This document shows positions 2,089 through 58,036 of a stretch of DNA of 64,000 nt, one piece after another. The translations under genes and the position numbers were made by a program. The notes beneath the pieces were generated by a model, which made no database searches, was not told the origin of the DNA, and saw only the letters and a list, made by a program, of their open reading frames with translations. Position 1 is the stretch's first letter. Every line of letters starts with the position of its first letter. Source of the DNA: an uncultured bacterium (lineage in GTDB: Bacteria; Desulfobacterota_D; UBA1144; Nemesobacterales; UBA2774); assembly GCA_963825135.1 (NCBI GenBank), contig CAWGRW010000009.1, forward strand, positions 512,001-576,000. Direction: 5' to 3'.

Positions 2089-2110
2089 GAAATATTAAGG
2101 AAATATTAAG
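2089..2110. repeat. Perfect 11-bp tandem repeat (GAAATATTAAG)x2
   Basis: Read directly from the intergenic sequence. Confidence 0.8.
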
Positions 2111-2117
2111 ACGGCCG

Positions 2118-2915: not shown

Positions 2916-3022
2916 ACCGTGGTTTCTCCGGGAAAAGGCGGATATTTTATCTAGTATATATGGAAAAAACTCGTGAGTTCAAATCGGGGGAGTTTATGAC
3001 GCCGTCTTTTCGGCAAAGACCG

Positions 3023-9233: not shown

Positions 9234-10184
9234 CTAAGCCGTCCGGTTATCCTGATTGAATTTATCGAGCTCGATATCGTACTCGGTATAAATCCCGAGA
9301 GCGTGGAGGCAGTCGTTCGCCTCCTCGAGGCTCCCCGCCCCGGAGACTGCGCGGGACATGCCCGATAATTTTTCATATAAAACGCCCGGATAGAAGTAAT
9401 ACGTCACCGTGGAGGACATCGAGAGACTGACTTGCCTCCTCCCGCTCCTTATGCTCGTATCGGAGAACTCACCCTTGGCATAGAGGGTCGGGGTACGGCT
9501 CGCTTCGGTGGGGACCACGGCGATCAGTCTTTCGAGGAGCGAAAGCGCCTCTTTGGTAATGCCCCAGCTCCCGAGGAGCCCTCCCTCCCTCGCGAGAATG
9601 CCCATCGACCTCTCGAGCTCCGCCTGTGTAAGCTCCCCGTCGCTCCCGAACCCGAACAACCCCATAATGGCCGGCATTCTTTTCTCGATCAGGGCAAAAG
9701 AAGCGGTCATGACGGAATCGGCGAGGGGGCTCATGAGCCCGGGCTCGTTCCCGAACGCAAGCAGATCCCCTCCGACATCGATGCCGACAATAAGGTCGGC
9801 CCCGAGCTCGCCGGCCGCGTGGAGTATCCCTTCAGCCACGGCCTCAGGGCCGGGATGTATGTTAATTAAAAGGGTCTCCGCCCCCAGGACCTCCGCCATG
9901 CCGGATTCAGCGAACCTGACCCCGGTGCTGGTTACCGTGTCCTCGTTCGCGAACCAGACGACATCGTTTAATTTACGCGCGTTCCTCACCTCGTCGAATT
10001 TTCTCGGGCCCGGCACGGGGTCTATCACGGACCTTTCCCAGGAGAGTCCCCCGAATACGCATCCGACTCCGAACATCCCCAGCAGGTCGGCCGTGGGGAC
10101 CGTGCCGACTATGTCTCCCCCGCCGCCTATGCCTATGAGCATGGCCTTCCTCGAATTCGTGATTATCTGCCTGAGCGATTTCAT
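9234..10184 (-). CDS. DUF1152 family protein
   Basis: GIGGGGD, GIDVGGD, SPLAD and GSDGEL motifs; ATG at 10184 preferred over TTG at 10199. Confidence 0.75.
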   Translation of the reverse strand: MKSLRQIITNSRKAMLIGIGGGGDIVGTVPTADLLGMFGVGCVFGGLSWERSVIDPVPGPRKFDEVRNARKLNDVVWFANEDTVTSTGVRFAESGMAEVLGAETLLINIHPGPEAVAEGILHAAGELGADLIVGIDVGGDLLAFGNEPGLMSPLADSVMTASFALIEKRMPAIMGLFGFGSDGELTQAELERSMGILAREGGLLGSWGITKEALSLLERLIAVVPTEASRTPTLYAKGEFSDTSIRSGRRQVSLSMSSTVTYYFYPGVLYEKLSGMSRAVSGAGSLEEANDCLHALGIYTEYDIELDKFNQDNRTA

Positions 10185-10325
10185 TCCGGGCAAGGGCAAT
10201 CTCCGTCTACAGTAGATTAAAGTGCGGGAATCCGCGTGAAATACTCTACTTTACGGGACGCAACTTTCAATTAATTCGACGTACAGGGAACACGGGAGAA
10301 GGGAGCGGCGCAGTGTCGGGGGCTT

Positions 10326-11747: not shown

Positions 11748-11976
11748 GGCAACCGTACAAGGAATACGGGTTTAACGGCCCCCGCCGGGCTTTCTAACAT
11801 TGGACGGGATACGAGCGGAATTGGATTTATTTTTGCGGGATAGACCGCGATGGAAAGGCGCTTCGGGCCCTCGCCGAGAGGTATTATTATGTTGAACGCG
11901 GTTCGGATATTTACCGTTCCGGTGCCCTCTAACCGCTGCACCGGCAAATATAAGCGAACCCGGCTTTATCGTCGAC

Positions 11977-12243
11977 TCAATCGGCGTACTGTATGCCGAG
12001 CCTCACCTGTGTTATCGCCTGGTTGACGAGCTCAAGAGCCCTGACCCTGTGCCCGCCCTTATCGGGTGACGAAACCTCCAGATTGATCCGCGCCTCATGC
12101 AGGCTGCCGAGGGCCTGCTCCATGTTCGGCTGATAACCGGGCTGGGCATTCGCTTCCCTGAACATATTAAAAGTGCCCATGAGAAACGCGGCAAAGAGAA
12201 CGCCCGCAAAAAACGGCAACGAAACCTTTATGATTCTGGACAT
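11977..12243 (-). CDS. Small exported helical protein (QPxM…DKGGHR family)
   Basis: AGGAGG SD before ATG at 12243; hydrophobic signal ending ANA|Q; QPNMEQAL…PDKGGHR. Confidence 0.75.
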   Translation of the reverse strand: MSRIIKVSLPFFAGVLFAAFLMGTFNMFREANAQPGYQPNMEQALGSLHEARINLEVSSPDKGGHRVRALELVNQAITQVRLGIQYAD

Positions 12244-12337
12244 TACGCCTCTCCTTGTTGATAAGAATTTACAGAAACTATAAAACAAGCGAACGGCGAC
12301 CGCAAACCAAAATTAAAAGCCGGACGCCGTCCGGACG

Positions 12338-14056
12338 TCAACGCTTGACCTTGTATCCGGCCTTCTCCCTGTCCCACGTGTCTTTGGTGATACCCATCTC
12401 GCGGAGTTTATTCTTCTGCACCCTCTCCGTGCCCGTCTTGGGCAGTGTGGCTTCGAAACGCAGGAATCTCGGGAGCATGAAATGGGGCATCCTGGGCTCG
12501 AGGAATTCCATGAGCTTGTGGGGATCGACCTTCTTCCCCTTTTTAGCGACAACCACGATCATTACCTCGTCCTCGGCGTACCTTCCTCCCTCGGCCTTAA
12601 TGCCTATGACGCCGCACTCCTCGATATCGGTGTGGGAGTTAACGATCTTCTCGACCTCGAACGAGCTGATGTTCTCGCCCCTCCTCCTTATATAGTCCTT
12701 GACCCTGTCGACGAAATATATGTATCCGTCCTTGTCCATCATGCCCGCGTCCCCGGTATGGAACCAGAAGTTCCTGAAGTCCTGCACGGTCTTCTCGGGC
12801 ATCTTGTTGTAATAATGGAGCATTATGTTGGGGGTCCTCGGGCGCACGATTATCTCGCCCACGTGCCCCCTCGGGACCTCCTCGTCTGTCTCGGGGTCGG
12901 CGATCTTTATCTCGTAACCCGGCGCTTCCTTGCCGCACGATCCCACCCTGAAAGGCTCGCCCGGCCTCATCCACGTGCACTGACCTATCTCCGTAAGCCC
13001 GTACCCCTCCATGAATCTGATATTAAACCTTTCCATAAATTTCTCGATGATGTCGTGAGGCGCGGGAGAACCCAGAACGAGCTTTACCCTGTGCTGTTTC
13101 TCCTCGGGCGCGGGCGGCGTATTCCACATGAAATAGGCCATGGTCCCGACGATGTTGAACTTGGTCACCCCGTGGTCCTTTATCCATTTCCAGAACTGTC
13201 TCGCGGAGTACTTCTCCTCGACGACTACCCCGGCCCCCTTGATGAGAGCGGGGTATACGGACATAACCATGGCGTTTGAATGATAGAGGGGAAGGCACGT
13301 GAAGCAGACGTCCCGCGGGCCTACGTCCATTATCTCCGCATAATTCCTCGCGCTCGAATAATCGGCTGCGCAGGGCCTCACGACACCCTTCGACCTCCCG
13401 GTAGTGCCCGAGGTGTACATGAGCCTCGCATGGTCCATGAACGTCACTTCGACGCCCGGGTCCGTGCTCTTCGGGGATTTTATGAACTTGGAATACGGGA
13501 TCATGCTCTCGAAATTAAAACCTTGTTTGTCGAATTTATCGCTCCCGCCCCTGGTCCATACTATCACACGCTCGAGCTGCGGGAGGTCGTTCGCTATGGG
13601 AGGCATCCTGTCGAGATACTCCTCGGCTATAAAAAGGAGCTTCGAATCGGAGCTGTCGAGTATGTACTGGAGGAAATCCATCTTGTACGCCGTGTTTATC
13701 GGCACCATGACGGCGCCCATTTTCAGTATGCCGAACCACGTTATCACGTAATCGTCCGAATTCGGCATGTACACCGCGACCTTGTCGCCTTTCTTTATCC
13801 CGAGCCCGAGGAGCCCGTTGGCGATCTTGTTCGCGAGCTGATTGGTCTTGAAGTAACTGAGCGGCTTCTTATAGCCGAACCGTAGAAACGGTTTCGCGCC
13901 GAGCTTCTTTGCCTGAAGCGTGAGTATCCTTGGAAGCACCCAGTTGCTTTTATCCTGACCAAGGTACCACTCCACGTTGAACTTGCCGTTCTCCCTCTTG
14001 TAGGCAATCGGGTGCATGAGGTCGCGGCCCTTCTTCCGCTTCGGTTTGGCTGCCAT
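12338..14056 (-). CDS. AMP-forming acyl-CoA ligase, CaiC-like
   Basis: YTSGTTGRSKG, GYGLTE, WFHTGD, RRRGENISSFE and LPKT motifs; GAGGGG SD before ATG at 14056. Confidence 0.9.
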   Translation of the reverse strand: MAAKPKRKKGRDLMHPIAYKRENGKFNVEWYLGQDKSNWVLPRILTLQAKKLGAKPFLRFGYKKPLSYFKTNQLANKIANGLLGLGIKKGDKVAVYMPNSDDYVITWFGILKMGAVMVPINTAYKMDFLQYILDSSDSKLLFIAEEYLDRMPPIANDLPQLERVIVWTRGGSDKFDKQGFNFESMIPYSKFIKSPKSTDPGVEVTFMDHARLMYTSGTTGRSKGVVRPCAADYSSARNYAEIMDVGPRDVCFTCLPLYHSNAMVMSVYPALIKGAGVVVEEKYSARQFWKWIKDHGVTKFNIVGTMAYFMWNTPPAPEEKQHRVKLVLGSPAPHDIIEKFMERFNIRFMEGYGLTEIGQCTWMRPGEPFRVGSCGKEAPGYEIKIADPETDEEVPRGHVGEIIVRPRTPNIMLHYYNKMPEKTVQDFRNFWFHTGDAGMMDKDGYIYFVDRVKDYIRRRGENISSFEVEKIVNSHTDIEECGVIGIKAEGGRYAEDEVMIVVVAKKGKKVDPHKLMEFLEPRMPHFMLPRFLRFEATLPKTGTERVQKNKLREMGITKDTWDREKAGYKVKR

Positions 14057-14245
14057 ATCGATATCCCCTCTCGAGCGAGCTCGAATTAATAATGGTTGAA
14101 TTTTAACACTACGCGATTTACATAACCCGCTTAGCTGTTTCATTTTCTACTTTATTTTTTTATAGGGAAAAGTCAAGCGATACGAACGGTACTACTTTAG
14201 TGATAGTCCCGCATGGCCGGGCGGCTCGATCACCGGAATCCCGGA

Positions 14246-39501: not shown

Positions 39502-40485
39502 ATGGCAACACTAGTTACGGGGGCCACGGGGTTTTTAGGCTCTCACATAGCGAGAAAACTGGCGGAGAGGGGGGACAAGGTAAGGATTCTCCTCAGAAAG
39601 ACCAGTAAAACGATAAATATCGACGATATCAACGCTGAGCGGGTTTACGGCGACGTAACTGACATAGACTCGATCAGAAAAGCGCTGGAAGGCTGCGATA
39701 CACTCTACCACGCGGCGGGCATCGTATCGCTCAAGCAGGCAGATTCCAAAAAGATGGAGGATATAAACGTAAAAGGTACCTGTAACGTACTCATGGCAGC
39801 GATGGAAGCGGGCGTGAAAAAAGTGGTCTATACGAGCAGCGTCGCCGCAATAGGGTTAAAACCGGGGAAAGAGGCCGCCGACGAAGAGACGCCGTTTGAC
39901 CCGGCCGCGACCGACATCCAGTATATCAAATCGAAATACTACGCGGAGCAGGAGGCCCTTAAATTTTTCGGGAAAGGCCTGCCGCTCGTGATCGTCAACC
40001 CTTCGATAGTGATAGGCGCAGGAGACGTCTACGTCTCGACCACGGGTATCATTCTCTGGTACTGCAAGAGGAGGTTTCCGGGATATACGGACGGAGGCAT
40101 AAATCTCGTCGACGCCGAAGACGTCGCCACCGGACACCTGCTTGCGGCGGAGAAGGGCAGACTTGGCGAGCGCTACATACTGAGCAGCCGCAATATCACC
40201 ATAAAAGAGCTATTCGAGGTCATAGAGAAGGTGACGGGAATCCCGGGACCGAAGATGAAGATACCCTACCCGCTCGCTTACATGGGCGCGTTTATCGCCG
40301 AGCGCGTATTCGGCATACCCGCGCCCAACTACTCAGCCATTCAACTAGACTCTATAAAGGCGTCAAAGCACTACTGGTATGTCGATAATTCAAAGGCGGT
40401 CAGGGAACTCGGCTTCTCTACGAGGCCGCTTGAAGAAACAATAGAAAGCACAGTAAAGTGGTTCAAGGAAAACGGTTATCTGTGA
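39502..40485 (+). CDS. NAD-dependent epimerase/dehydratase (HpnA/dihydroflavonol-reductase-like extended SDR)
   Basis: TGATGFLG, YTSS, YIKSK (YxxxK) and GRLGERYIL motifs. Confidence 0.9.
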   Translation: MATLVTGATGFLGSHIARKLAERGDKVRILLRKTSKTINIDDINAERVYGDVTDIDSIRKALEGCDTLYHAAGIVSLKQADSKKMEDINVKGTCNVLMAAMEAGVKKVVYTSSVAAIGLKPGKEAADEETPFDPAATDIQYIKSKYYAEQEALKFFGKGLPLVIVNPSIVIGAGDVYVSTTGIILWYCKRRFPGYTDGGINLVDAEDVATGHLLAAEKGRLGERYILSSRNITIKELFEVIEKVTGIPGPKMKIPYPLAYMGAFIAERVFGIPAPNYSAIQLDSIKASKHYWYVDNSKAVRELGFSTRPLEETIESTVKWFKENGYL

Positions 40486-40540: not shown

Positions 40541-41612
40541 ATGCCCGGAAATTCATTCGGACAACCTGTTTCGTATCACGACATGGGGCGAGTCCCACGG
40601 TCTGGCGCTCGGCGTAGTCATAGACGGCTGCCCGGCGGGTCTCGAGATATCGAAAGAGGATATACAATTCGAGCTCGACCGCAGGCGCCCCGGACAGAGC
40701 AGGATAACCACGCAAAGAAAAGAATCTGACAGCGTCGAGATTCTCTCAGGCGTATTCGAGGGAAAAACGCTCGGCACGCCTATCTCGCTCATGGTCAGGA
40801 ACGAGGACGTTATTTCCAAATCCTACGAGGATATTAAAGACACGTACCGGCCCGGACACGCCGATTATACGTACGACGCGAAATTCGGCATAAGGGATTA
40901 CAGGGGCGGCGGCAGGTCTTCGGCAAGGGAGACGGTTGGAAGGGTCGCCGCGGGGGCGGTCGCAAAAAAGATCCTGAATATGAACGGTATAAATACATAC
41001 GGGTTCGTCAGGCAGGTCGGACGGATCGCGGCAAAAAAAATAGACCTCGACGAGATAGAGAGGAACATAGTGAGATGTCCCGATGCCGAAAAGGCCGCCC
41101 AAATGATTGAGCTGATAGAAAAGGTGAGGAAGGAAGGGGACTCGGTCGGCGGCACGGTGGAGGTAATTTCGAAGGGACTTCCGGCGGGTCTCGGGAATCC
41201 GGTATTCAATAAGCTGGACGCTGATCTCGCTTCGGCGCTTATGAGCCTCGGGGGAATAAGGGGGTTCGAAGTAGGCATGGGCTTCGAAGCGTCCAAAAAG
41301 AAAGGCTCTCAGGTGAACGACGTAATGTATAAAGACAAAGCTGGAAGCCTCAGGTTTAAAACGAATAACGCGGGCGGTCTCCTTGGCGGGATTACGAACG
41401 GCGAGGACCTCGTCGTGCGAATCGCCATCAAGCCTACTTCTTCCATCTCCAAGGTTCAGCATACCGTAGATAAATACGGCAACCCGAAAGAGCTCAAGGT
41501 AAAGGGCAGGCACGACCCGTGCCTATGCCCGAGGGCAGTGCCTATAGCAGAGGCGATGGTAAACCTCGTTCTCGCCGATCATCTGCTCATGTCCAGAGTC
41601 GCGAGGATTTAA
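40541..41612 (+). CDS. aroC: Chorismate synthase with an apparent 1-bp insertion near 40561-40566
   Basis: MPGNSFG in one frame and LFRITTWGESHG, RPGHAD, RSSARET, GRHDPC in the next. Confidence 0.95.
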
Positions 41613-41691
41613 ATCCCCGCAGATCGATAAGTGCGGAAATGCATTCTCTCGCCCCCGGCAGTGTTTCCCACCGCCCATTTCATATAACCTA

Positions 41692-41720
41692 TTGAAACAA
41701 AAAACAAATTGCACTAAACT
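41692..41720 (+). promoter_or_regulatory. sigma70-type promoter upstream of the riboswitch
   Basis: TTGAAA-N17-TAAACT, about 20 nt before the aptamer. Confidence 0.6.
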
Positions 41721-41739
41721 TGCAAAAAGGGTTAGTATC

Positions 41740-41832
41740 CTTCCGAAATGGCAAACTATCCGAAAGGGTAGGACGCAAAGCCTCAAGCCTAAGGACGCCT
41801 GAGCGGTGTCTAGGGCGGTTGGGTTGCCGAAG
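41740..41832 (+). ncRNA. c-di-GMP-I (GEMM-I) riboswitch
   Basis: GGCAAAC-TATCC-GAAA-GGGTA-GGACGCAAAGC…CCTAA…GGTTGCCGA matches the class I consensus (GNRA tetraloop, CUAA receptor); P1 CTT(C)CG/CGAAG. Confidence 0.93.
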
Positions 41833-41950
41833 AACGTATACTTGCAATAATTCTAATAATCAAGGATTATTATGGTAGAGCTATAAACAAATATATTAAC
41901 AATGTTAAAGAACAATGCTAAAATAATTTTTTGAGAGGGGGATCCGAATA

Positions 41951-44707
41951 ATGGGGATAATAATCCGAGAATCGAAAGAACGGAGAAGGCATGAAAGAAT
42001 CCCTGTGGATTTTCATGTCTATTCGAAAAATTCCGGCAAGAAGATCGGGCAGGCGAAAGACCTCTCGTATAAAGGGCTATTCATACAAACTGAAGACGAG
42101 TTCAAGCCGGGAACTAAGCTCCTTCTCGAGTGTGATTTATCAGGCACGTTTCCCATCAAGGCCTACTGTGAAGTAAAGAGGCACGAAACAAACGGTACCG
42201 GCGAGCACGGTATCGGGGTCGAATTCATAAACATATACGATTCGGACAGGACGAAGTTAGAGAGCTATATCGAGAAAAGTAAAAATACCCTCAACTCCGA
42301 CGACTATTATCTATCCGACTTCGCGGACATCCCGGACGAGGACCTCTTTAAAAAGGCCGAAGTATTCTGGCAATACGGACTGGACATGGCGTCGAAGGGA
42401 TACATCAGATACAGAAGACCCCTGGCGTCGCCCTCGGCGCACAGAGTGATCATCGACGACGACTTCACCGGAAAGAAAAAAGAGATGATCATGATGGGCA
42501 GCAACAACTACCTCGGGCTCACATCCCATCCGAGGGTTATGAAAATAGCCAAAGAAAATATCGATAAATACGGCGCAGGCGCAGGCTCGGTGCCGCTCCT
42601 GGCCGGGTCGTTCGACATACACAGGCGGCTGGAGATGAAGCTGGCCGAGCTCAAGGGCGCAGAGGACGCGATAATCTTTCCGAGCGGATACGTTACGAAC
42701 CTCGGATGCATACAGGCGCTTGTTAAAAATGAGGACCTCGCGGTCATAGACAGGCTCGCCCACGCGAGCATCATCGACGGCTGTATGCTGTCCTCAGGCA
42801 CATTCAGGACATTCAAGCACTCGGACGTCCGGAGCCTCGAAAACGTATTAAAAAGAAATAGAGACAATTTTAAAGGAAGGATAGTTATAGTCGACGGCGT
42901 ATACAGCATGGACGGGGACATAGCCCCTCTCAGGCAGATCGCCGAGACGGCCCACAGGTACGGCGCCAAGGTTATGGTGGACGAGGCTCACGCCACAGGT
43001 GTCATTGGGGACAGGGGCAAGGGAACTCCCAGCCATTTTAAAATGAAGCCCGGAGAGATAGATATCGTTATGGGCACGCTGAGCAAATCCCTGGGCGGCG
43101 TCGGCGGATTCATAGCTTCGACGAAAGAAGTAGTGAGCTACCTGAGGTACTACACCAGGTCCTTTTTCTTCTCGTCCAATTTCCCCCCTTCCGTCGCGGC
43201 CTCGGTACTGGCCGCGATCGAGGTAATGGAAACGGATAAATCCATCCACGAAAACCTCTGGAAGAATATCAAGCACATGAAGGAAAACCTGAAATCAATG
43301 GGATTCAACACGGGGCAGACCGAGTCGGCGATCATCCCCGTTATGACCGGCGACGAGCTCACCCAGAAAAAGATGAGCAGGAGGTTCCATGAAGAGGGGA
43401 TATACGTAAACGCGATACCTCATCCCGCCGTGCCGAAAGGACATGAAAGGTTCAGGTTCAGCCTAATGGCCACACACACGCGCGAAGACATCGACAAGAC
43501 GCTCGAGGTTGTTGAAAAACTGGGAAGGGAATTCGGTATCATCGACAGACCGGTCTCTCTCTACGTGTCTGAAAATGACAAATACACCGTGAGAGAAATA
43601 TCTACCAAAGAGGAGATCGAAAAATCTGTCAGGTTCTCGTGGGGAGTGTACAAGGATTATCCCGCGTGGGTGCCTTACTTCCTGATAAAAGATCAGGTTA
43701 AGCTCGTTTCGAACGACTACTTCTACTTCAGAAAGGTCTACGGGAAGCGGTTCGTTGTGGAGGAAAAAGGAGAGATAGCGGGAACCGTAAGTGCGTTTAT
43801 CGACAATTACTACAACCGTTATCACGATACCAACGCAGGGTTCCTCGGGTTTTTCGAGGCCCTCCCTGAAAAACAGGAAGCTGTGGGACTGATGCTGAAG
43901 AAGGCGGAAGATTTCCTCACCGGCAACGGATGTACCGAGCTGCAAGGACCCGTGAACGGGATATTCGGTCTCTTCGGCGGCGGCCTGCTCTCGAGCAACT
44001 ACGGGAAGATACCGTCCTTCCTCCAGGTATACACCCAGCCCTACTACCACGACTATTTCACAAACGCGGGGTTCGGGCCGGTGAAAAAGCTCCTGCACTA
44101 CACTATAGACCTTAAATCGCCCGAGAACGTGGAAGCGATAATGAAATACTCTCGGGAATCGGCGCTGCAGGATATAAAGATAAGGCGAATGAACAAATCC
44201 GACTGGGAGAACGAGGTGAGGAGCGTGGTCAGGATTTTCAACAATTCCCTCGCTCAGCTCTGGGGCAATGTCCCGTTTGACGCCGACGAGTTCATAGAGA
44301 TCGCGGATGAATTCAAGAGCCTTATAGTTCCCGAATACTGGCTAATCGCGGAATCGGCCGGCGAAGCTATAGGCTTCATAGGGGGATTCCCCCAGTACGC
44401 TTCCGTATTCAGGGGCTTAAACGGGGAGATCAAGCCCCACAAGCTGGTGACGCTGCCCCTCCGGCTAAGAGGCATCAAGGAAGGCGTGTTAATGATCATG
44501 GGCCTCATGGACGAATTTAAGGGAAGGAGAATCGGCACCCTCCTCCTCAGCAGAGTCTGCGAGGCGATGATCGGGAACGGGTACGAAAAGGTAGCCGGCA
44601 CATGGGTTCTGGAAGATAACCTGGGCTCGCGGCGTATCGTGGAGAACCTGGGCGGCAAGGTAGATCTATACTGGGATATGTATTCGAAAACACCTGTTAC
44701 AGGCTGA
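41951..44707 (+). CDS. Fusion: PilZ + PLP-dependent alpha-oxoamine synthase (SPT/BioF/CqsA family) + YghO/bCerS-like GNAT N-acyltransferase
   Basis: RRHER and DLSYKG (PilZ); SNNYLGL, HASI, DEAH, GTLSK (alpha-oxoamine synthase); VYKDYPAWVP, GFLGFFE, GPVN, RRIGTLL, TWVLEDN (GNAT). Confidence 0.88.
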   Translation: MGIIIRESKERRRHERIPVDFHVYSKNSGKKIGQAKDLSYKGLFIQTEDEFKPGTKLLLECDLSGTFPIKAYCEVKRHETNGTGEHGIGVEFINIYDSDRTKLESYIEKSKNTLNSDDYYLSDFADIPDEDLFKKAEVFWQYGLDMASKGYIRYRRPLASPSAHRVIIDDDFTGKKKEMIMMGSNNYLGLTSHPRVMKIAKENIDKYGAGAGSVPLLAGSFDIHRRLEMKLAELKGAEDAIIFPSGYVTNLGCIQALVKNEDLAVIDRLAHASIIDGCMLSSGTFRTFKHSDVRSLENVLKRNRDNFKGRIVIVDGVYSMDGDIAPLRQIAETAHRYGAKVMVDEAHATGVIGDRGKGTPSHFKMKPGEIDIVMGTLSKSLGGVGGFIASTKEVVSYLRYYTRSFFFSSNFPPSVAASVLAAIEVMETDKSIHENLWKNIKHMKENLKSMGFNTGQTESAIIPVMTGDELTQKKMSRRFHEEGIYVNAIPHPAVPKGHERFRFSLMATHTREDIDKTLEVVEKLGREFGIIDRPVSLYVSENDKYTVREISTKEEIEKSVRFSWGVYKDYPAWVPYFLIKDQVKLVSNDYFYFRKVYGKRFVVEEKGEIAGTVSAFIDNYYNRYHDTNAGFLGFFEALPEKQEAVGLMLKKAEDFLTGNGCTELQGPVNGIFGLFGGGLLSSNYGKIPSFLQVYTQPYYHDYFTNAGFGPVKKLLHYTIDLKSPENVEAIMKYSRESALQDIKIRRMNKSDWENEVRSVVRIFNNSLAQLWGNVPFDADEFIEIADEFKSLIVPEYWLIAESAGEAIGFIGGFPQYASVFRGLNGEIKPHKLVTLPLRLRGIKEGVLMIMGLMDEFKGRRIGTLLLSRVCEAMIGNGYEKVAGTWVLEDNLGSRRIVENLGGKVDLYWDMYSKTPVTG

Positions 44708-44714
44708 TCTGATA

Positions 44715-47288
44715 ATGAATGAGAAACAGCTGACTATGCCGAAATACGGCACTGCGAACATACAGAAATCTGTATTCAGCATAGTTATATTTATTTTGCT
44801 GTTGTTTTGCATAGCAAACTTCGTTTTAGGCCTGAACTGGACAAATAAACCATATCCGGGATTTTTCTTCTATAGAAACCTCGTAATAACCGATATCTCT
44901 CCGAAGACAGTTGACGGAGATTCACTAAAAAGATTCAAAGACCAGATAAAGAAAGTTAATGGCATACCGGTCACAACACCGGGCGATGTATTCAACATAT
45001 TAGACGATCTCCCTGTAGGCACCGAGGTGGACTACACGATAGCGAGAAACAGCGGGACTTTCGATCTAAGAATCCCTATTGAGAGGTTCAGTTTAAAAGA
45101 ACTGCTCGTTATGTTCGGAATCGGATATGTAATCGGCATTGTCTTCCTCGCTATCGGCGTACTCGTCCTGTACAAGAAACCGAACATAAAGGCGAGTAAA
45201 GCGTTCTTCATATTCTGCGTGTCTATTTGTATATGGTTTGTTGGCTCGTTCGACGCGCAGGCCATCTATTTCTTCGACCAGCTGACTTTCTTCTCCTGGA
45301 TCTTCAGTCCGCTCTTCGGCATTTATCTGATGTTCATTTTTCCTTCTGATGCGCAGGTAAACGGAGTGACGCACACCGTCACTTCAATCCTGTTTTTATT
45401 TATCTCGGCAATGCTATTCGTCCTCCAATTCATCTTCTTCTACAACTATGAAATATGGAAATATGTCAATACCATAAGCTGGATTTACGTAGTCCTGAGC
45501 ACCATGATTTTCCCCATCTCTTCGCTCGTGACCTACATGCATCCGTCGTCGGCGCTTGAAAAACAACGCGCACAGATAATCTTGCTCGGCTGCATTTTCG
45601 GCCTCATCGCCCCGGCTTCGGTGGTGGCTTGCATCACGGTCTTTAAAATTAGCATGCCGTACAATCTGATGGCTCTCCCAGTGATAATATTCCCGGTGTC
45701 CATCGCATACTCCATAGTAAAACACAAGCTCTTCGACATAGACGTTATCATTGAAAAGGCGCTCACGTACGGACTCCTCACAGGAGCCGTCGGCGGCATC
45801 TTCGCCCTCACCGTGCTCGGATTCAATGTCGCATTCGCCAAATACGGGGGCTGGAAGAATCCCGCATTCTTCGTAATCCTGAGCGGGTTTCTCGTAATTG
45901 CGTTAAACCCCCTCAAAACCCGGATACAGGACCTGGTAGACCTGACCTTTTTCAGAAAGAAGTACGATTACAGGGGAACCGTCGAGGAAGTAAGCTATGC
46001 GATGACGTCCCTCCTGAGCCTCGACAAGATCATCGATAAGATCATCGATATAGTCGAAAGCACCATGTTCTCCACCCCTGTTACCGTATCCGTATACAAC
46101 CAGGACCTGGGGGCTTATGAGCGGTATTCCAAAGAGGGCGTCATCCAGAGCTCTCCCGATACGACGCTCGCGGAGGACAATATTCTCGTACAGCAGCTCA
46201 ATTTTCACGGAAACGAGATATTCAAGGAAGACCTTATAGCGGACGAGAGGTATATCCACAACTCCCAGAGACTCGTGAACGAATTCGAGAGATTCGGCGC
46301 ATCGCTCATCATTCCGCTTTTTTTCAAAAAACAACTCATCGGCTTCATAGCCCTCGGAGAAAAGAAGTCCGGACTCTCGTACACATCACGGGACGTGAAA
46401 CTCCTAAAGCTTCTCGCAAACCAGAGCGCTATAGCCATAGAAAACGCGCTCGCATTCAAGCTCGTCGAGGACTACGCCAAGAAGCTCGAAAAAACGAATA
46501 AGGAGCTCAAGGATGCGCAGATGCAGCTCGTGCATGCTGAAAAGATGTCCGCGATCGGACAGCTTGCCGCGGGCGTTGCCCACGAGATAAGGAACCCGCT
46601 GAACATCATCGAAGGCGCCAGGTACTACATCTCCACCTACATGATGGACAAAGAAAATACGGAGGTCGTCGGAGAGTACCTCGACTACATAAAACACGAG
46701 ATCGACAGGACGAACCGTCTGATAGACAGCCTGCTCAAGTTCTCAAAAGCCGAGCCGCCCTATTTCGAGAGGGTTAATATAAACAGCGTGCTCGAGAACG
46801 TCGTTATCCTCGTACGCAAGCAGCTCTCGGACAACAACATCAACCTCACCCAGAACCTGGACGAGAACATCCCTCCCATAATGGCGGACCCGAACCAGCT
46901 CTGGCAGGTATTCATAAACATTATTTTAAACGCGATACAAGCGATGCCGAAAGGCGGAGACTTCGTAATAGAGACTTCTACGCGCTGGGACGAATTCGCC
47001 AGCGGGGACTCCGGACACGTCTACATACATTTCAAAGACTCCGGAGTGGGAATAGATAAAGAAGACATGATGAGAATCTTCGATCCGTTCTTCACAAAGA
47101 AAGATATGGGGACGGGACTCGGGCTTTCGATAGCCTACAAGATCATCGAAAAGCATAAAGGAAGAATAATAGTTGAGAGCGAAAAGGGGCAAGGAACGGT
47201 ATTTACGATTGAACTTCCGTCAAATAACTATAATATTACTTCAGGAGAGGTTGATGACGAACACGAAAAAGAGGGTGCTGGTTGTTGA
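44715..47288 (+). CDS. Membrane sensor histidine kinase (TM-PDZ-multi-TM-GAF-HisKA-HATPase)
   Basis: DQIKKVNG PDZ-like motif; about 8 TM segments; GFIALGEKKSG…LANQSAIAIENA GAF; AHEIRNPL H-box; N, G1, F and G2 boxes. Confidence 0.92.
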   Translation: MNEKQLTMPKYGTANIQKSVFSIVIFILLLFCIANFVLGLNWTNKPYPGFFFYRNLVITDISPKTVDGDSLKRFKDQIKKVNGIPVTTPGDVFNILDDLPVGTEVDYTIARNSGTFDLRIPIERFSLKELLVMFGIGYVIGIVFLAIGVLVLYKKPNIKASKAFFIFCVSICIWFVGSFDAQAIYFFDQLTFFSWIFSPLFGIYLMFIFPSDAQVNGVTHTVTSILFLFISAMLFVLQFIFFYNYEIWKYVNTISWIYVVLSTMIFPISSLVTYMHPSSALEKQRAQIILLGCIFGLIAPASVVACITVFKISMPYNLMALPVIIFPVSIAYSIVKHKLFDIDVIIEKALTYGLLTGAVGGIFALTVLGFNVAFAKYGGWKNPAFFVILSGFLVIALNPLKTRIQDLVDLTFFRKKYDYRGTVEEVSYAMTSLLSLDKIIDKIIDIVESTMFSTPVTVSVYNQDLGAYERYSKEGVIQSSPDTTLAEDNILVQQLNFHGNEIFKEDLIADERYIHNSQRLVNEFERFGASLIIPLFFKKQLIGFIALGEKKSGLSYTSRDVKLLKLLANQSAIAIENALAFKLVEDYAKKLEKTNKELKDAQMQLVHAEKMSAIGQLAAGVAHEIRNPLNIIEGARYYISTYMMDKENTEVVGEYLDYIKHEIDRTNRLIDSLLKFSKAEPPYFERVNINSVLENVVILVRKQLSDNNINLTQNLDENIPPIMADPNQLWQVFINIILNAIQAMPKGGDFVIETSTRWDEFASGDSGHVYIHFKDSGVGIDKEDMMRIFDPFFTKKDMGTGLGLSIAYKIIEKHKGRIIVESEKGQGTVFTIELPSNNYNITSGEVDDEHEKEGAGC

Positions 47289-49170
47289 CGACGAGCTCCT
47301 TATATTGAAAATCATTTCCGACATCCTGACCAAGGAGGGGTATGAAGTCGTAGTCGCCAATAACTGCGAGAAAGCGACCGAGTACCTGAGGGCGTCCAAT
47401 TTCAATGTAGTCTTGTCCGACATCAAAATGCCGGTAAAAAGCGGTATCGACCTTCTTGAGGAAATAAAGAAGAAAGACCCGAATATCCCCGTAATACTTA
47501 TGACCGGATTTGCTTCGTTGGAAACAGCGGTTGAGGCAGTACAGAACGGAGCCTTCGATTACCTCATTAAACCACTCGACTACGGGAAACTCAGGAGCGT
47601 CATAGACCACGCAGCCGATAGATTCGAACTCCACAGCGAAAACACGCGCCTGCTGAGCGATTTGAAAGAGCTGAACACGAATCTTGAATTGAAGGTCCGG
47701 GAAAGGAACAGGCAGCTTGAGAATACGCTGAATAGTACGATAGAGAGCATAATCACAACCGACAGGGACCTGATAATAGAATCAGCGAACCCGAAGACCT
47801 CGGAAATTTTCGGCAGAAGCTGCGTGGGCGAAAAACTGAGTCTCTTATTTCAGGGTGTTAATTTTGACACAATTATTCCAAACATTCTAAGCGACCCCTC
47901 ATATTCGACGAAGCACGAAATAAGATACGACAATAAGTTCCTCGAAGTTAGCCTGTCGCCCCTGATCGATTTTGAGACGAAAGAAATTTTCGGCGTGATA
48001 GCAGCGACGGAAGACATAACGGAGAAGAAGAAGCTCGAAGCGCAGCTCATACATTCCGCGAAGATGTCGGGTGTCGGCCAGCTGGCCGCCGGCGTCGCAC
48101 ACGAATTCAATAATATCTTGTCAGGCATCATAGGCTACACGAGCCTCGCGCTCACGAGGCAGGACCTGGACAGCGTCAGGAAAGACCTGAGAGTAATCGA
48201 GAAGGCCTCCGACAGGGCGGTCGAGATAGTGAACAAACTCCTTTCCTTCTCAAGACAAAAAGGGGAGAAATTCCAGGTCGCACAGATAGAGAGCATCATA
48301 GACGACGCGCTCGGACTCGTTGAGCACAACTTCGAAACGGAGGGTATAAGAATACTCAGGAGTTACGAAAAGGTCCCCGCCATCCGATTGAATCCGGGGG
48401 AGATACAGCAGGTGTTCCTGAACCTCGCGATCAACTCGAAACACGCCATGCCTAAAGGCGGAGCGATAGCGATCAGCACGAAGCTCTCCGGCAATTATGT
48501 GAGAATCGATTTCTCCGATACGGGCATTGGCGTATCACCGGAGAACCTGCCCAGGATATTCGAACCCTTTTTCACGACAAAACTGAGCGAGGGCACAAAA
48601 TCCGGCACGGGTCTCGGTCTGTCGGTAATATACGCGATCATAGAAAGACACGGCGGGCGCATCGAAGTATCGAGCGAGGTCAATAAAGGCACGACGTTCA
48701 CGATTCACCTGCCGAACATTCAGGCCATTGCCAAAACTCCCGAGATCGAGCCCGCTCAGAAAGTACAGAACGCCAAAGTAATCGAAATGAGGCGAAAAGG
48801 GAATGTCTTGATAGTCGATGACGAAGAATTCATCAGAGATATCGTAAGTGATTGCCTTTCCAGCACCGGACACAATGTTATGACGGCTGAAAGCGGCGAC
48901 CAGGCGATCGAGCTCATAAAGAGGAATCATTTCGACATCACGTTCCTCGATTTCTCCATGCCTAATAAAAGCGGTCTCGAACTTCTGAGAGAAATAAAAG
49001 TTATCGATCCCAACTCCACGGTGGTAATAATAAGCTCGAGACCGGAAGAGCAGCTCCCGGACGAGCTTTCGGACGAGGGCTCGTACAATATAATTAAGAA
49101 ACCGTTCTCGGTCGACCAGATTCAAAACGCGGTCTCCAGGGTTCTTGGGGCCGAGGCGATGAGCAGATAA
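47254..49170 (+). CDS. Cytoplasmic hybrid kinase REC-PAS-HisKA-HATPase-REC
   Basis: VLVVDDE…SDIKMP…KP; AHEFNNIL; GTGLGL; second VLIVDDE…LDFSMP…KKP; AGGAGAGG SD before ATG at 47254. Confidence 0.93.
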   Translation: MTNTKKRVLVVDDELLILKIISDILTKEGYEVVVANNCEKATEYLRASNFNVVLSDIKMPVKSGIDLLEEIKKKDPNIPVILMTGFASLETAVEAVQNGAFDYLIKPLDYGKLRSVIDHAADRFELHSENTRLLSDLKELNTNLELKVRERNRQLENTLNSTIESIITTDRDLIIESANPKTSEIFGRSCVGEKLSLLFQGVNFDTIIPNILSDPSYSTKHEIRYDNKFLEVSLSPLIDFETKEIFGVIAATEDITEKKKLEAQLIHSAKMSGVGQLAAGVAHEFNNILSGIIGYTSLALTRQDLDSVRKDLRVIEKASDRAVEIVNKLLSFSRQKGEKFQVAQIESIIDDALGLVEHNFETEGIRILRSYEKVPAIRLNPGEIQQVFLNLAINSKHAMPKGGAIAISTKLSGNYVRIDFSDTGIGVSPENLPRIFEPFFTTKLSEGTKSGTGLGLSVIYAIIERHGGRIEVSSEVNKGTTFTIHLPNIQAIAKTPEIEPAQKVQNAKVIEMRRKGNVLIVDDEEFIRDIVSDCLSSTGHNVMTAESGDQAIELIKRNHFDITFLDFSMPNKSGLELLREIKVIDPNSTVVIISSRPEEQLPDELSDEGSYNIIKKPFSVDQIQNAVSRVLGAEAMSR

Positions 49171-49186
49171 TAAAGCGCGACGGAAT

Positions 49187-49549
49187 ATGGAAGACGCTCC
49201 TTCTTTTTACTGCAAAATATTCGTAAACGAAAACGAGATATATTCGGGAGACTTCGGGGAAGTCCCCGAGAAGTTCAGGACCGGCATGGTCAGGGACCTG
49301 TCGGAATGGGCGGGATCGCTCGGCAAGAGGGGCCTGAACGAGCTCATTTATTCACACCTCGCCTGGTATGAAGAAAAGGGTCAATATTGCGAGGAGTGCG
49401 GAACGTGGAAGGCGGAAAGCGGTGTGAAAGAGTGCGGCGAGTGCGGAAAAAAGCTGAAAGAACGTTATATTTATGAGCGGGAGAAGAGGCTCGACATGAT
49501 TATCACCTGTGTGGGAATGATATCAGGAGTGCAAATTTCAGCAGCTTAG
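49187..49549 (+). CDS. Hypothetical protein with a zinc ribbon
   Basis: CEECG…CGECG pair. Confidence 0.7.
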   Translation: MEDAPSFYCKIFVNENEIYSGDFGEVPEKFRTGMVRDLSEWAGSLGKRGLNELIYSHLAWYEEKGQYCEECGTWKAESGVKECGECGKKLKERYIYEREKRLDMIITCVGMISGVQISAA

Positions 49550-49591: not shown

Positions 49592-49882
49592 ATGAAATTA
49601 ACAGTTAAAGGTCAGATTTTTCCCGGGGTCTGGAAGATCGCGGATAGCGTCAGGAAACTGAGAGACGACAGAAAGCCCGTTAATATAGGATCCGGGACGG
49701 TCGGATTTCCCGTCTATGAAGTGGACCTCCCGGACAATACCAGAAAAGAGGGTCTATACTTTGTGACTCCGGAGGGCACAAGACTCTACTTTAACCCTGG
49801 CGATCAGTATCAGGTCGGCTACCTGATATCCGAAACCGACAGCGACCCGCTGCGAGAAAAACATTTTAAAGGGACCGCATAA
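49592..49882 (+). CDS. Hypothetical protein
   Basis: 96-aa ORF with AGGGG SD. Confidence 0.6.
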   Translation: MKLTVKGQIFPGVWKIADSVRKLRDDRKPVNIGSGTVGFPVYEVDLPDNTRKEGLYFVTPEGTRLYFNPGDQYQVGYLISETDSDPLREKHFKGTA

Positions 49883-55993: not shown

Positions 55994-58036
55994 CTAATCG
56001 CGTGCTCCGGTTTTCTTCGTCGATATCGGGAAAACGATATTGAACATAGTCCCGTTTTCGTTCCGGAGCTCCACCGTCCCCTTGAGCTGATCCGCGAGTG
56101 TGCAGACTAGCTGAAGACCGAGGGTATTCGTATTCCGGATGTCCATATTAACGGGAAATCCGACTCCGTTGTCCCTTACCGAGAGGGTAAGAATCCCGTC
56201 CGAATCCGAATATATTTCCACCGACACTTTGTTCCTGGCCCTCTTGGCCGGATTATCGCCGTCCGGATAATTGAAGGCGTGCTTGAGGCAATTCGAGAAA
56301 AGCTCGTTGATTATCAGCCCGCAGGGAATCGCCTGATCGACATCAATCGAGATATCGTACGCATTTATTTGAACTTGCATATTCTCCCCGAAATCCTTAT
56401 AGACCCTGAGCAGGTTTCTGGTCAGGTCCGTTATATAGTCGAGCATTTTTATCTCGTCGATGTTCCTCGACTGGTAGAGCTTCTCGTGGATCAGAGCTAT
56501 TGTGGATATCCTGCTCTGACTCTCATAGAAAAGGGCTAGTGATTCCTCGTCCTTCGCGTAATCGGACTGGAGGCTCAACAGGCTCGATATGACCTGGAGG
56601 TTGTTCTTTACCCTGTGGTGTATCTCCCTCAGCAGGGACTCCTTCCGCATGAGCGATTCCTGTATCTGTTCGTCGGACTTTTTACGCTCCGTGATATCGC
56701 GTGTATCGACTATCGCCCTGATCTCCCCCGTCGACGTCCTGAACGGTTTGCCGGTGGCTTCGAACCAGCGCCAATCCCCGTTTTTATGCCTGTACCTGTA
56801 AACGGCTCTCCCGGCGGACCCGGAGCTGAACCCCTGTACGAATGCAGACATCACGGCAGAGCGGTCATCCGGGTGCATAAATTCGAACGCATTTTTCCCG
56901 AAAAGCTCCTCGGGTTCATATCCCAATATCTCTTTATGGTTGGAGCTGGCGTACATTATGCGCCCGTCGTACAATATCTCGAGAATGAGGTCATGCGCGT
57001 TCTCGACGAGCGTGCGGTACAACTCCTCTTTTTCCTTCAGCATGTCCTCCGCTCTTTTGCGCTCTATCATCGTGCCGATCCAGCGTCCCATGAGCCTTAT
57101 AAAATCCTTGTCCGCCGTTGTAAAAGGCTCCTTCCGCGGATGTGGACTTGCAAAATTAAGCGTCCCGAATACCATTCCGTTAATCCGTAAAGGTACGCCG
57201 ATATAGGACTCGAAGCCGAAGTCTTTATAGAACTCTTCATTCCGATACTCGGATTCTCCCACGTGGTCAATGGCAAGAACGTCGTCGTTTGCGAGTGTAA
57301 TTTTGCAGTAAGTCTTCGAAAGCTCACATTCGAGGCCCTGAGTCACTCTCCCCATCTCATCGTAGCAATATAGGACCGTGCAATACTTGCCGGCGATCCG
57401 GCCGACTCCCGCAACTTCCATACATAGCATGTCGGCGCCCGTCTTGAGTGTCTCGACGAGCTGCGTTTCGATCCCTACGCCGGGTTCAGCCGAGATCTCA
57501 TAGAGGGACCTGATCCGTTTCTCCTGGAGCGCGTGCGCCTCGTCGGAGAGCTTCCTTCCGGTGTTGTCCCTGAGTGAGCCGATGATACCCGTGACATTAC
57601 CCCCCTTCGCGCCGGACGAAACCGACACCTCGGCGCTTACGGAACCGCCTCCGCTTAAAAGGATATCAGCTTCAAAAACCCCTCTCTGCCCCCCATTCTC
57701 AAATTCGAGGTAATTGCGCGCTGAGTTATGTCCCGTATCGTTAGCGAGCAGATCAGAAAACGGTCTGCCTATCCACAAGTTGCGCTTCCAGCCCGTCAGC
57801 GTCTCGAACGCGGGATTGATATAGGTAATAACGCCTTCCGGTGTGAGACTGAAAAAAACATCGGGCGCATTCTCCAAAAGGCCGAAAAAGAAATCCCCGT
57901 TGCTCAAAACCTCGTTCATACCGGGGGCGGGGGAACACCCGTCGTCAAGGAATGTACCGACAGGACCTATAAGATCGAGCGCTGCCTGTTTTAGATCAAG
58001 CTCCGGCACAATATTTTGTTTCAATTTGCTCTTCAT
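55994..58036 (-). CDS. Cytoplasmic PAS-GAF-PAS histidine kinase (HisKA_2 type)
   Basis: Two PAS domains, GAF (SYIGVPL…FGTLNF), EIHHRVKNNLQ H-box, DNGVG; no TM segments. Confidence 0.92.
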   Translation of the reverse strand: MKSKLKQNIVPELDLKQAALDLIGPVGTFLDDGCSPAPGMNEVLSNGDFFFGLLENAPDVFFSLTPEGVITYINPAFETLTGWKRNLWIGRPFSDLLANDTGHNSARNYLEFENGGQRGVFEADILLSGGGSVSAEVSVSSGAKGGNVTGIIGSLRDNTGRKLSDEAHALQEKRIRSLYEISAEPGVGIETQLVETLKTGADMLCMEVAGVGRIAGKYCTVLYCYDEMGRVTQGLECELSKTYCKITLANDDVLAIDHVGESEYRNEEFYKDFGFESYIGVPLRINGMVFGTLNFASPHPRKEPFTTADKDFIRLMGRWIGTMIERKRAEDMLKEKEELYRTLVENAHDLILEILYDGRIMYASSNHKEILGYEPEELFGKNAFEFMHPDDRSAVMSAFVQGFSSGSAGRAVYRYRHKNGDWRWFEATGKPFRTSTGEIRAIVDTRDITERKKSDEQIQESLMRKESLLREIHHRVKNNLQVISSLLSLQSDYAKDEESLALFYESQSRISTIALIHEKLYQSRNIDEIKMLDYITDLTRNLLRVYKDFGENMQVQINAYDISIDVDQAIPCGLIINELFSNCLKHAFNYPDGDNPAKRARNKVSVEIYSDSDGILTLSVRDNGVGFPVNMDIRNTNTLGLQLVCTLADQLKGTVELRNENGTMFNIVFPISTKKTGARD

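Follow-up and report, generated by a model that had tools for sequence, protein, structure and literature searches.

A candidate c-di-GMP-controlled α-oxoamine synthase/N-acyltransferase fusion and its two linked sensor kinases in an uncultured bacterium

The DNA considered here (the window) is a chromosomal stretch of 64,000 nucleotides with 53% G+C from an uncultured bacterium of the GTDB lineage Desulfobacterota_D (contig CAWGRW010000009.1, positions 512,001 to 576,000), and all coordinates given without a locus name follow its numbering. It contains a class I cyclic di-GMP (c-di-GMP) riboswitch, followed by the gene for a single-chain fusion of a PilZ domain, an α-oxoamine synthase (AOS) and a tandem GNAT module, and then by the genes for two histidine kinases (HK1 and HK2), a Cys4 zinc-ribbon-like protein and a 96-residue open reading frame (ORF). 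All of the elements named in the original prediction, which had been made from the letters of the DNA, are present where it had placed them, as judged by Rfam, the ORF list and Pfam. We put at roughly even chances that c-di-GMP controls, through the riboswitch and probably also through the PilZ domain, a bifunctional enzyme whose AOS resembles serine palmitoyltransferase (Spt), and which makes an N-acylated aminoketone, i.e., a ceramide-like envelope lipid.

In the proposed scheme, the genes would form an operon that is conserved in uncultured Thermodesulfobacteriota/Dadabacteria-like bacteria. Its expression would be set by the c-di-GMP-I riboswitch in the leader, while the N-terminal PilZ domain, with its binding motifs intact, would gate the activity of the enzyme. 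The AOS domain would condense an amino acid with an acyl-thioester to form an α-aminoketone, and the fused tandem GNAT would then N-acylate this amine, which is unstable, to yield an N-acyl aminoketone of the 3-keto-dihydroceramide (oxidised ceramide) type. Such a product may serve as a sphingolipid-like envelope lipid or as its precursor; we infer that it is a lipid, and the proposed chemistry draws on the domain families, on the fusion itself and on the split-gene neighbourhoods in other phyla described below. The two kinases, which are presumably co-transcribed with the enzyme and would be its obligate evolutionary partners, comprise a PDZ-like/7TM/GAF sensor that faces the envelope and a hybrid kinase of REC-PAS-HK-REC order, and they would most likely couple the state of the envelope or membrane to the lipid pathway or to c-di-GMP turnover.

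The linkage of fusion homologues to these two kinases, on which the original prediction had staked itself, is found in all three of the true-family loci and, by an indirect proxy, for at least 12 of 35 protein clusters. A genome scan matched 599 stretches, the best 80 of which are the loci numbered L001 onward. Three of these 80 carry members of the true family, with fusions 81% (L001), 49% (L004) and 47% (L006) identical to that of the window. In each, the fusion is directly followed by an HK1 ortholog (79, 53 and 49% identity, respectively, including the HK1-specific N-terminal 430 residues) and then by an HK2 ortholog (90, 63 and 56%). The Cys4 gene is conserved in L001 (70%) and L004 (60%), as is the 96-residue ORF that adjoins it (84% and 74%), and the L006 contig stops after HK2. 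The conserved block thus runs one gene past the Cys4 gene that had closed the predicted operon.

A protein search counted 35 clusters of three-domain fusions (at least 880 residues, 42–98% identity), the few named ones of which come from metagenome-assembled genomes (MAGs) of Deltaproteobacteria, Desulfobacterota or Thermodesulfobacteriota. The same search returned about 50 clusters of two-domain PilZ-AOS proteins (~545 residues), some AOS-GNAT proteins without PilZ (~800 residues) and two AOS fusions with PF04339, one of which also has a PilZ domain. As a wider proxy for linkage, fusion clusters were compared with HK1 orthologs, and those with longest contigs of identical size were taken as matched (for example 139407, 629240, 188867 and 71826). 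The matched three-domain clusters amount to 12 of the 22 on contigs of at least 10 kb, and the same holds for two clusters of the two-domain PilZ-AOS form (57328 and 8273) and for one 476-residue AOS+GNAT cluster (17097) that came from a search with the C-terminal part.

The three related loci show some further particulars. L001 comes from a long-read MAG in which these genes contain frameshifts; at L001:10001–15329, frame changes split the fusion and HK1 into ORFs of 748, 89, 164 and 590 residues, which is more suggestive of assembly errors than of genuine pseudogenes. L004 has a DUF255 thioredoxin-domain gene (L004:7174–9270) inserted between HK2 and the Cys4/96-residue pair, and the pair nonetheless stays with the cassette. 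In L006, the relative without the riboswitch, c-di-GMP turnover genes stand beside the cassette: directly upstream of the fusion, L006:689–3186 encodes a CZB-GGDEF diguanylate cyclase (689–1612) and a REC-HD-GYP (HD_5) protein (2104–3186).

The double c-di-GMP input that had been proposed, i.e., a riboswitch plus a PilZ domain with conserved binding motifs, is borne out at the level of prediction from sequence. An Rfam scan of both strands of the whole window returned a single match at the gathering threshold, the RF01051 aptamer; it is full-length, its score far exceeds the gathering score of 35 bits, and it lies in sense orientation in the 5′ leader of the fusion gene, ending 119 nt ahead of the ATG at 41951. 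At the position of G20 in Vc2, an A marks the GEMM-Ib riboswitches selective for cyclic GMP-AMP and a G marks those for c-di-GMP. Model position 11 of the aptamer, which we take to be this ligand-specifying position 5′ of the first paired GC, is a G in the alignment of the window.

The candidate promoter ahead of the aptamer is weak on its own, because three such sites occur in 41500–42050, compared with 0.9 ± 1.0 in shuffled sequences. However, the promoter stretch and the whole leader are near-identical in L001, whereas the DNA farther upstream has diverged. A terminator scan found no intrinsic terminator in the leader. In the minimum free energy (MFE) fold of the leader in the window, the Shine–Dalgarno sequence is paired with CCUUCC, which is located at the 5′ aptamer edge and is thus a possible anti-Shine–Dalgarno element; when the Rfam aptamer pairs are forced in a simple model, the Shine–Dalgarno sequence is still not freed, and the pairing is absent from the MFE fold of L001. 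Covariation is not assessable, since there are just two leader sequences, which are 86% identical. The modelled anti-Shine–Dalgarno pairing, and hence the ON/OFF polarity of the riboswitch, is not robust.

Among the 17 loci scanned with Rfam, L001 alone carries the aptamer, at the homologous place (9793–9884, 77 bits), and L004 is not informative on this point, the N-terminus of its fusion being cut by the contig end. The riboswitch is lineage-specific and does not always accompany the system: L001 has it but L006 lacks it, suggesting that the PilZ domain is the constant c-di-GMP input and the riboswitch an added layer. The proposed synteny of fusion, kinases and riboswitch therefore holds for the fusion and both kinases, but not for the riboswitch.

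The PilZ domain scores 58.5 bits when residues 1–175 are rescored alone. Its RxxxR motif is R12-R13-H14-E15-R16 and its DxSxxG motif is D37-L38-S39-Y40-K41-G42; RxxxR and (D/N)xSxxG are the c-di-GMP-binding motifs of PilZ domains. R12, R16, S39 and G42 are invariant in 27 of 27 family members (43–88% identity), whereas at position 37 there is D or N in 26 of these sequences and E in the remaining one. Judging from these residues, the PilZ domain most likely gates the activity of the enzyme via c-di-GMP. An Atlas search with the PilZ part returned PilZ clusters only (score 0.80) and is uninformative.

The AOS domain is complete and is matched by Pfam Aminotran_1_2 (PF00155) over residues 178–520 with 193.5 bits. 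Among solved structures, it matches best to 7poa, the Thermus BioF/KBL enzyme (8e-87, residues 176–531, with K379 aligned in TLSK), and further solved relatives are the Sphingobacterium serine palmitoyltransferase (8guh/3a2b, 8.4e-84) and E. coli KBL (1fc4). H271, D344, H347 and K379 are invariant in a 27-sequence alignment; we take K379 to be the lysine that binds pyridoxal 5′-phosphate (PLP) and H271/D344/H347 to be the His/Asp/His triad of the family.

The split homologues provide a clue to what the two catalytic modules may do together. A profile of the tandem GNAT matches ORFs in 14 of the 80 AOS loci, namely the three fusions (L001, L004 and L006) and 11 loci in which the two modules are split (L014, L015, L018, L023, L024, L026, L035, L044, L045, L048 and L049), from Elusimicrobia, Methylomirabilales and one bin labelled Eggerthellaceae. 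In the split pairs, an AOS of ~400 residues is at once followed by the tandem-GNAT region (~370 residues where complete, 24–30% identical to residues 545–918 of the fusion), and in L014 the GNAT coding region lies in a different reading frame from the AOS. This adjacency in other phyla suggests that the AOS and the tandem GNAT are partners well beyond the present lineage, where a single chain unites them.

An AOS tree places these enzymes together. The tree has 81 rows sampled from the 80 loci, and was built by a quick IQ-TREE search with SH-aLRT support and left unrooted; in it, all 15 GNAT-linked AOS rows fall within one 31-row clade (SH-aLRT 97), and the GNAT-linked label needs two changes, a value that none of 500 shuffles equalled. 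The same clade includes two Bacteroidales AOS that exceed the NCBI Spt equivalog cut-off (662.6 and 669, with the cut-off at 640), and of the remaining 49 rows, six AOS were sampled, all of which pass BioF or Kbl-family cut-offs. The split AOS score highest on the Spt model (505 and 515 bits). Of the two comparisons drawn in the original prediction, that with Spt and its GNAT partner (bCerS-like) is accordingly the better one: the AOS and the same GNAT are adjacent in 11 loci, and the AOS of those loci group with bona fide Spt.

The neighbours of the split pairs suggest lipid or envelope functions. An extended short-chain dehydrogenase/reductase (SDR) of the HpnA/OleD/3-ketosteroid-reductase type is encoded directly upstream of the AOS in three loci (L014:3075–4067, L015:1858–2883 and L018:1864–2847); these SDRs are HpnA/OleD/SdmB-like (134–144 bits), 28–32% identical to the SDR encoded at 39502–40485 of the window, and may resemble a CerR-type ketoreductase. 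A PAP2_3 protein is encoded near the split pair in L018. In L035:7759–12337, and likewise in L026, L044, L045 and L048, the order is accB (BCCP), accC (biotin carboxylase), an RfaE-domain-II-like adenylyltransferase gene (188.4 bits in L035, cut-off 181.5), AOS and tandem GNAT, as established by a Pfam scan for L035 and L044 (accB not being scanned in L044) and by ORF sizes for L026, L045 and L048. This Elusimicrobia gene row places the enzyme pair among fatty-acid and lipopolysaccharide-core genes. L023 belongs to an Elusimicrobia MAG, and directly after its split pair come genes for a protein of the HD_5 (HD-GYP) type and for a single-domain receiver (L023:7166–8779); together with the neighbours of the L006 cassette, they hint at a link to c-di-GMP turnover, in two loci only. 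Finally, L049, the Eggerthellaceae bin, is near-identical in sequence and gene order to the Elusimicrobiales loci L045 and L048 (AOS end branches 0.019–0.042), which suggests a mis-binned contig.

The C-terminal part of the fusion was identified as a tandem GNAT mainly from structure. Pfam Acetyltransf_1 covers residues 791–901 only (41.1 bits), whereas residues ~545–918 (~370 residues) are conserved as a single block in the family alignment, and the AlphaFold model of this module (pLDDT 89, pTM 0.86) has two GNAT lobes. Foldseek matched it to the tandem GNATs GlmA (5kf1, E 1.7e-15), MAB_4324 (7q3a, 9.3e-15), CBG (2wpw, 2.0e-13) and MshD (1ozp, 2.7e-12), with TM-scores of 0.56–0.63 relative to the query and 0.67–0.71 relative to the target and with 11–14% identity. 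A sequence search of solved structures with the module gave no match at E ≤ 0.01, and Pfam gives the tested members of the module family a partial Acetyltransf_1 match or none. The family consists mostly of stand-alone proteins of 370–390 residues; a profile search finds 13,106 representative clusters of it at E ≤ 1e-3, a number that falls to 3,152 at E ≤ 1e-30. An Atlas search returned generic 'GNAT family' clusters (369–397 residues; Pseudomonadota, Bacteroidota and Chloroflexota; score 0.98), which we treat as a lead only.

Several observations weigh against a c-di-GMP-controlled synthase of a ceramide-like lipid. The fusion AOS misses every Spt cut-off (378.9 against 640 for NF047600, 344.9 against 500 for NF047599 and 290.7 against 670 for NF047603), and the BioF, Kbl and Spt models give it about equal scores, so that the amino-acid and acyl substrates are not fixed by them. 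Its closest AOS relatives are Bacillota enzymes (45–55% identity) with neither a GNAT partner nor a lipid context; in L002, L003, L005 and L009 their neighbours are SASP, SipL, polyamine and class-V aminotransferase genes, which give no functional lead, and within the 31-row clade the subclade of the fusion is sister to Bacillota AOS without informative context. The nearest solved tandem GNATs are amino-sugar or thiol acetyltransferases, with query TM-scores of only ~0.6. Use of a long-chain acyl donor by the GNAT module is conjectural. NCBIfam has no model for the module in the four members tested, in which it gives chance-level GNAT matches only, and the likeness to bCerS is one of gene pairing and N-acyltransferase class, not of a sequence comparison with bCerS. 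By the ORF and Pfam scans, the operon has no gene for an acyl carrier protein (ACP), an acyl-ACP synthetase or a reductase. As to control and linkage, L006 has no aptamer in the 700 nt upstream of its fusion, even at E ≤ 1. The contig-size proxy is indirect and leaves 23 of the 35 three-domain clusters without a match, 12 of them on contigs shorter than 10 kb and one without a contig size; such non-matches carry no weight, and the clusters and listings cover part of the family.

Also among the objections, the SDR encoded at 39502–40485, two genes upstream of the riboswitch, was considered as a CerR candidate and set aside: it is HpnA-like (350.3 bits, cut-off 367.65), it lies outside the riboswitch-controlled unit, and its neighbourhood is kept only in L001.

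The same observations leave room for a short-chain chemistry, which we consider unlikely. Here, a Kbl/BioF-like AOS would join glycine or alanine to a short acyl-CoA and the GNAT would acetylate the aminoketone, yielding a soluble metabolite, an osmolyte or a pyrazine-type precursor under c-di-GMP control. The NCBIfam scores of the fusion AOS are indeed highest for the BioF/Kbl subfamily TIGR01825 (409.3) and Kbl (395.3), followed by BioF (390) and Spt (379); the Thermus enzyme that is its best solved relative has a broad specificity, the nearest solved tandem GNATs use acetyl-CoA, and a gene for an acyl carrier or for fatty-acid activation is missing from the operon. However, the AOS reaches no Kbl or BioF cut-off, nor any other NCBIfam equivalog cut-off, the tree sets the fusion on the side of bona fide Spt and apart from the sampled BioF and Kbl enzymes, and the split homologues adjoin accBC, PAP2_3 and lipid-type ketoreductase genes.

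HK1, the first of the two kinases, consists of a transmembrane (TM) segment (residues 12–44), a PDZ-like domain (45–122), a bundle of ~7–8 TM helices (127–413), a GAF domain (435–576) and a HisKA-HATPase_c core (615–836). Pfam recovers HisKA (49.9 bits), HATPase_c (88.9 bits) and GAF, and HK1 has no receiver domain. Of the membrane PDZ-GAF kinase that had been described, the membrane part and the GAF domain stand, whereas the PDZ domain is not found by Pfam in residues 1–430, even at E 10, and is PDZ-like by structure model only. The AlphaFold model of residues 1–430 (pLDDT 78.9) shows a TM helix, an outward-facing β domain of ~80 residues and a helical bundle. By Foldseek, the β domain matches the PDZ domains of DegS/HtrA weakly but consistently (E 1.6e-3 to 6e-3; root-mean-square deviation 2.1–3.5 Å over 82–104 columns; target TM-score 0.60–0.63 for the isolated PDZ domains 9pno_B and 7l71), and the helical bundle resembles 7TM receptors in topology only. 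The precomputed Pfam annotation of HK1 orthologs has PDZ_2 or HisKA_7TM in some of them, for example PF13180 PDZ_2 in P0199.

HK2 is the overlapping REC-PAS-HisKA-HATPase_c-REC kinase that had been predicted (HisKA 47.8, HATPase_c 92.4 and Response_reg 188.1 bits, the last in two stretches, with a weak PAS_9), with its start moved. The ATG at 47254 is residue 28 of the TTG ORF, is preceded by GGAGAGG and gives an overlap of 35 nt with HK1; the orthologs of HK2 have 634 and 637 residues, and the ATG is most likely the start rather than the TTG at 47173. Neither the best 25 of 82 NCBIfam matches of HK1 nor the best 25 of 169 of HK2 include a CqsS or LqsS model.

It is also conceivable, though unlikely, that the kinases act upstream and are not sensors of the product, HK1 reading envelope stress and the phosphorelay tuning c-di-GMP or other targets, with the synthase merely a co-expressed output. 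The likeness of the PDZ-like domain to the stress-sensing PDZ of DegS/HtrA fits this account, as do the GGDEF and REC-HD-GYP genes that adjoin the L006 cassette, the greater conservation of HK2 than of the enzyme (90/63/56% vs. 81/49/47%) and the operon block itself, in which Pfam and NCBIfam scans found no DNA-binding response regulator. However, it leaves unexplained why these kinases stay with the synthase over such divergence, and no GGDEF, EAL or HD-GYP gene occurs among the 58 window ORFs scanned.

The second comparison drawn in the original prediction was with quorum sensing, in which the fusion would make a diffusible or membrane-borne N-acyl aminoketone autoinducer that is sensed by the 7TM/GAF part of HK1 and relayed via HK2, as in CqsA/CqsS, LqsA/LqsS or RpfF/RpfC/RpfG. 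Family membership does not support this: on NF005526, the model of the CqsA/LqsA type (cut-off 428), the AOS reaches 207.6 bits, far under its BioF, Kbl and Spt scores. A circuit of this general kind is improbable in our view: although the order synthase-kinase-kinase is conserved over 47–100% identity, the membrane bundle and GAF domain of HK1 could in principle bind small or lipid ligands, the REC-HD-GYP near the L006 cassette and the HD_5 and REC after the L023 split pair look like an RpfG-like output, and the Cqs/Lqs synthases are AOS enzymes, those synthases have no N-acyltransferase, the AOS groups with the Spt-containing clade, the split AOS-GNAT pairs have no adjacent kinase in the loci examined, and the periplasmic PDZ-like domain suggests peptide or envelope cues rather than an autoinducer.

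More speculative still, and in our estimate quite unlikely, is a feedback circuit in which high c-di-GMP would turn on the fused enzyme via riboswitch and PilZ, the ceramide-type product would enter the membrane and be read by the 7TM/GAF part of HK1 while the periplasmic PDZ-like domain of HK1 reads envelope peptides, and HK2 would relay to c-di-GMP turnover enzymes such as the L006-type REC-HD-GYP and GGDEF proteins. If true, bacterial sphingolipid chemistry would here underlie a circuit of the Cqs/Rpf kind.

Returning to the ceramide-like product, its nearest known counterpart is the bacterial ceramide pathway. The N-acyltransferase of that pathway, bCerS, is a GNAT, and the paper that defined it is reportedly that of Stankeviciute et al. 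(2022), on the Caulobacter enzyme CC_1154/CCNA_01212; no account of the domain structure of this protein turned up in the literature searched. According to three papers, the pathway consists of Spt, bCerS and the reductase CerR, the genes of which are often clustered, and acylation is proposed to come ahead of reduction (PMC11334938, PMC11087976, PMC11324152). One of them proposes that N-acylation directly follows condensation (PMC11087976), and the natural fusion of an AOS to an N-acyltransferase supports this order. Another proposes Thermodesulfobacteriota as abundant sphingolipid producers in euxinic waters (PMC11334938).

The present system shares with Spt-bCerS-CerR of Caulobacter, Bacteroidota and Myxococcota an AOS followed by an N-acyltransferase that acts, or here would act, on the aminoketone before reduction, in cytoplasmic soluble enzymes. 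It also shares the clustering of the genes, with an SDR-type reductase gene just upstream of the AOS in L014, L015 and L018, and, in the quick unrooted tree, the position of the AOS within the 31-row clade that also holds bona fide Spt. It differs in that both enzymes are fused and preceded by a PilZ domain, in that the AOS falls under every Spt cut-off, and in that the operon has neither a reductase gene nor one for an ACP or acyl-ACP synthetase. In the portions of the literature that the search covered, neither c-di-GMP control of sphingolipid synthesis nor kinases linked to it were found, and no paper combining c-di-GMP, a riboswitch and serine palmitoyltransferase turned up.

We note likenesses to other known systems as well. 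First, as in the CqsA/CqsS and LqsA/LqsS α-hydroxyketone systems, the gene for an AOS-family synthase lies beside that for a membrane sensor kinase feeding a phosphorelay; here, however, the AOS is outside the CqsA/LqsA family, there is an additional N-acyltransferase, c-di-GMP control is predicted, and the sensor kinase has a PDZ-like/7TM/GAF input with no receiver and is followed by a second, hybrid kinase. Second, in the familiar examples of cellulose synthase BcsA and of Alg44, a biosynthetic enzyme likewise has a fused or attached PilZ domain with RxxxR and D/NxSxxG, through which c-di-GMP can activate the making of an envelope product, but that enzyme is a membrane glycosyltransferase, whereas here it would be a soluble PLP-dependent C–C bond-forming enzyme with an acyltransferase, and the gating is predicted. 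Third, the Rpf/DSF system (RpfF, the hybrid kinase RpfC and the REC-HD-GYP protein RpfG) also ties the synthase of a lipid-type signal to a hybrid kinase and to c-di-GMP turnover, for which the neighbours in L006 and L023 are the counterpart; its synthase chemistry, of the crotonase type, is unrelated, no HD-GYP was seen in the window, and c-di-GMP would here stand upstream of the synthase. Fourth, mycothiol synthase MshD, GlmA, MAB_4324 and the clavulanate protein CBG have the same two-lobed GNAT fold, but acetylate sugars, thiols or aminoglycosides, whereas the present module belongs to a separate, very large and unnamed family.

The known outputs of c-di-GMP are mostly exopolysaccharides, adhesins, pili, flagella and transcription factors, and we know of no PLP-dependent enzyme of lipid synthesis that has both a PilZ domain and a riboswitch of its own. 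No PilZ-AOS fusion and no c-di-GMP control of such an enzyme was found in the literature searched, outside which most subscription journals lie, nor was the layout of a fused AOS-GNAT under c-di-GMP with two adjoining kinases. If the product is ceramide-like, the operon would tie the messenger of biofilm formation and sessility directly to sphingolipid-type envelope remodelling in anaerobic Thermodesulfobacteriota, and would offer the first regulatory handle on bacterial ceramide synthesis. The tandem-GNAT family would then be a large pool of candidate aminolipid or ceramide N-acyltransferases, and the strictly linked HK1 and HK2 could be put to the test as a sensor module devoted to an enzyme of lipid synthesis.

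The features of the locus are collected in Table 1. Downstream of the aptamer are five ORFs on the same strand, packed tightly or overlapping. The zinc-ribbon gene of the original prediction lies in its place and its translation has the CxxC...CxxC pattern, but its zinc-ribbon Pfam match is below the cut-off (20.4 vs. 27 bits).

Table 1. Coordinates of the riboswitch, the fusion gene with its domains, and the downstream genes in the 64-kb window
Feature	Position	Strand	Details
Sigma-70-like promoter candidate, TTGAAA-17-TAAACT	41692–41720	+	9/12 matches; putative function
c-di-GMP-I riboswitch aptamer, RF01051	41740–41831	+	78.2 bits, E 1.1e-13, model positions 1–87 of 87
Leader / expression platform	41832–41950	+	Shine–Dalgarno GAGAGGGGG at ~41933–41943
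Fusion of PilZ, AOS and tandem GNAT	41951–44707	+	918 residues; ORF list, Pfam
PilZ domain, PF07238	41978–42274	+	Residues 10–108; 54.7 bits (cut-off 22.5)
PLP-dependent AOS domain	42383–43543	+	Residues ~145–531; Pfam, NCBIfam, solved-structure matches
Tandem-repeat GNAT module	43583–44704	+	Residues ~545–918; AlphaFold, Foldseek
Histidine kinase 1 (HK1)	44715–47288	+	857 residues; gap of 7 nt to the fusion gene
Hybrid kinase 2 (HK2)	47254–49170	+	638 residues from ATG 47254; ORF open from TTG 47173
Cys4 zinc-ribbon-like protein	49187–49549	+	120 residues; gap of 16 nt; PF13248 below threshold
Conserved ORF	49592–49882	+	96 residues; no Pfam or NCBIfam match

Elsewhere, the window carries housekeeping genes, including those for ATP synthase, DnaB, SHMT, HisS and PurA. 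About 28 kb upstream, on the minus strand at 9234–14143, are genes for a DUF1152 protein, an LCAT-like (lecithin:cholesterol acyltransferase family) protein and an AMP-binding acyl-activating enzyme; these may serve in lipid metabolism. On the other side, 6 kb downstream and also on the minus strand (55994–58036), lies the gene for a further cytoplasmic sensor kinase with the domain order PAS-GAF-PAS-HisKA_2-HATPase_c.

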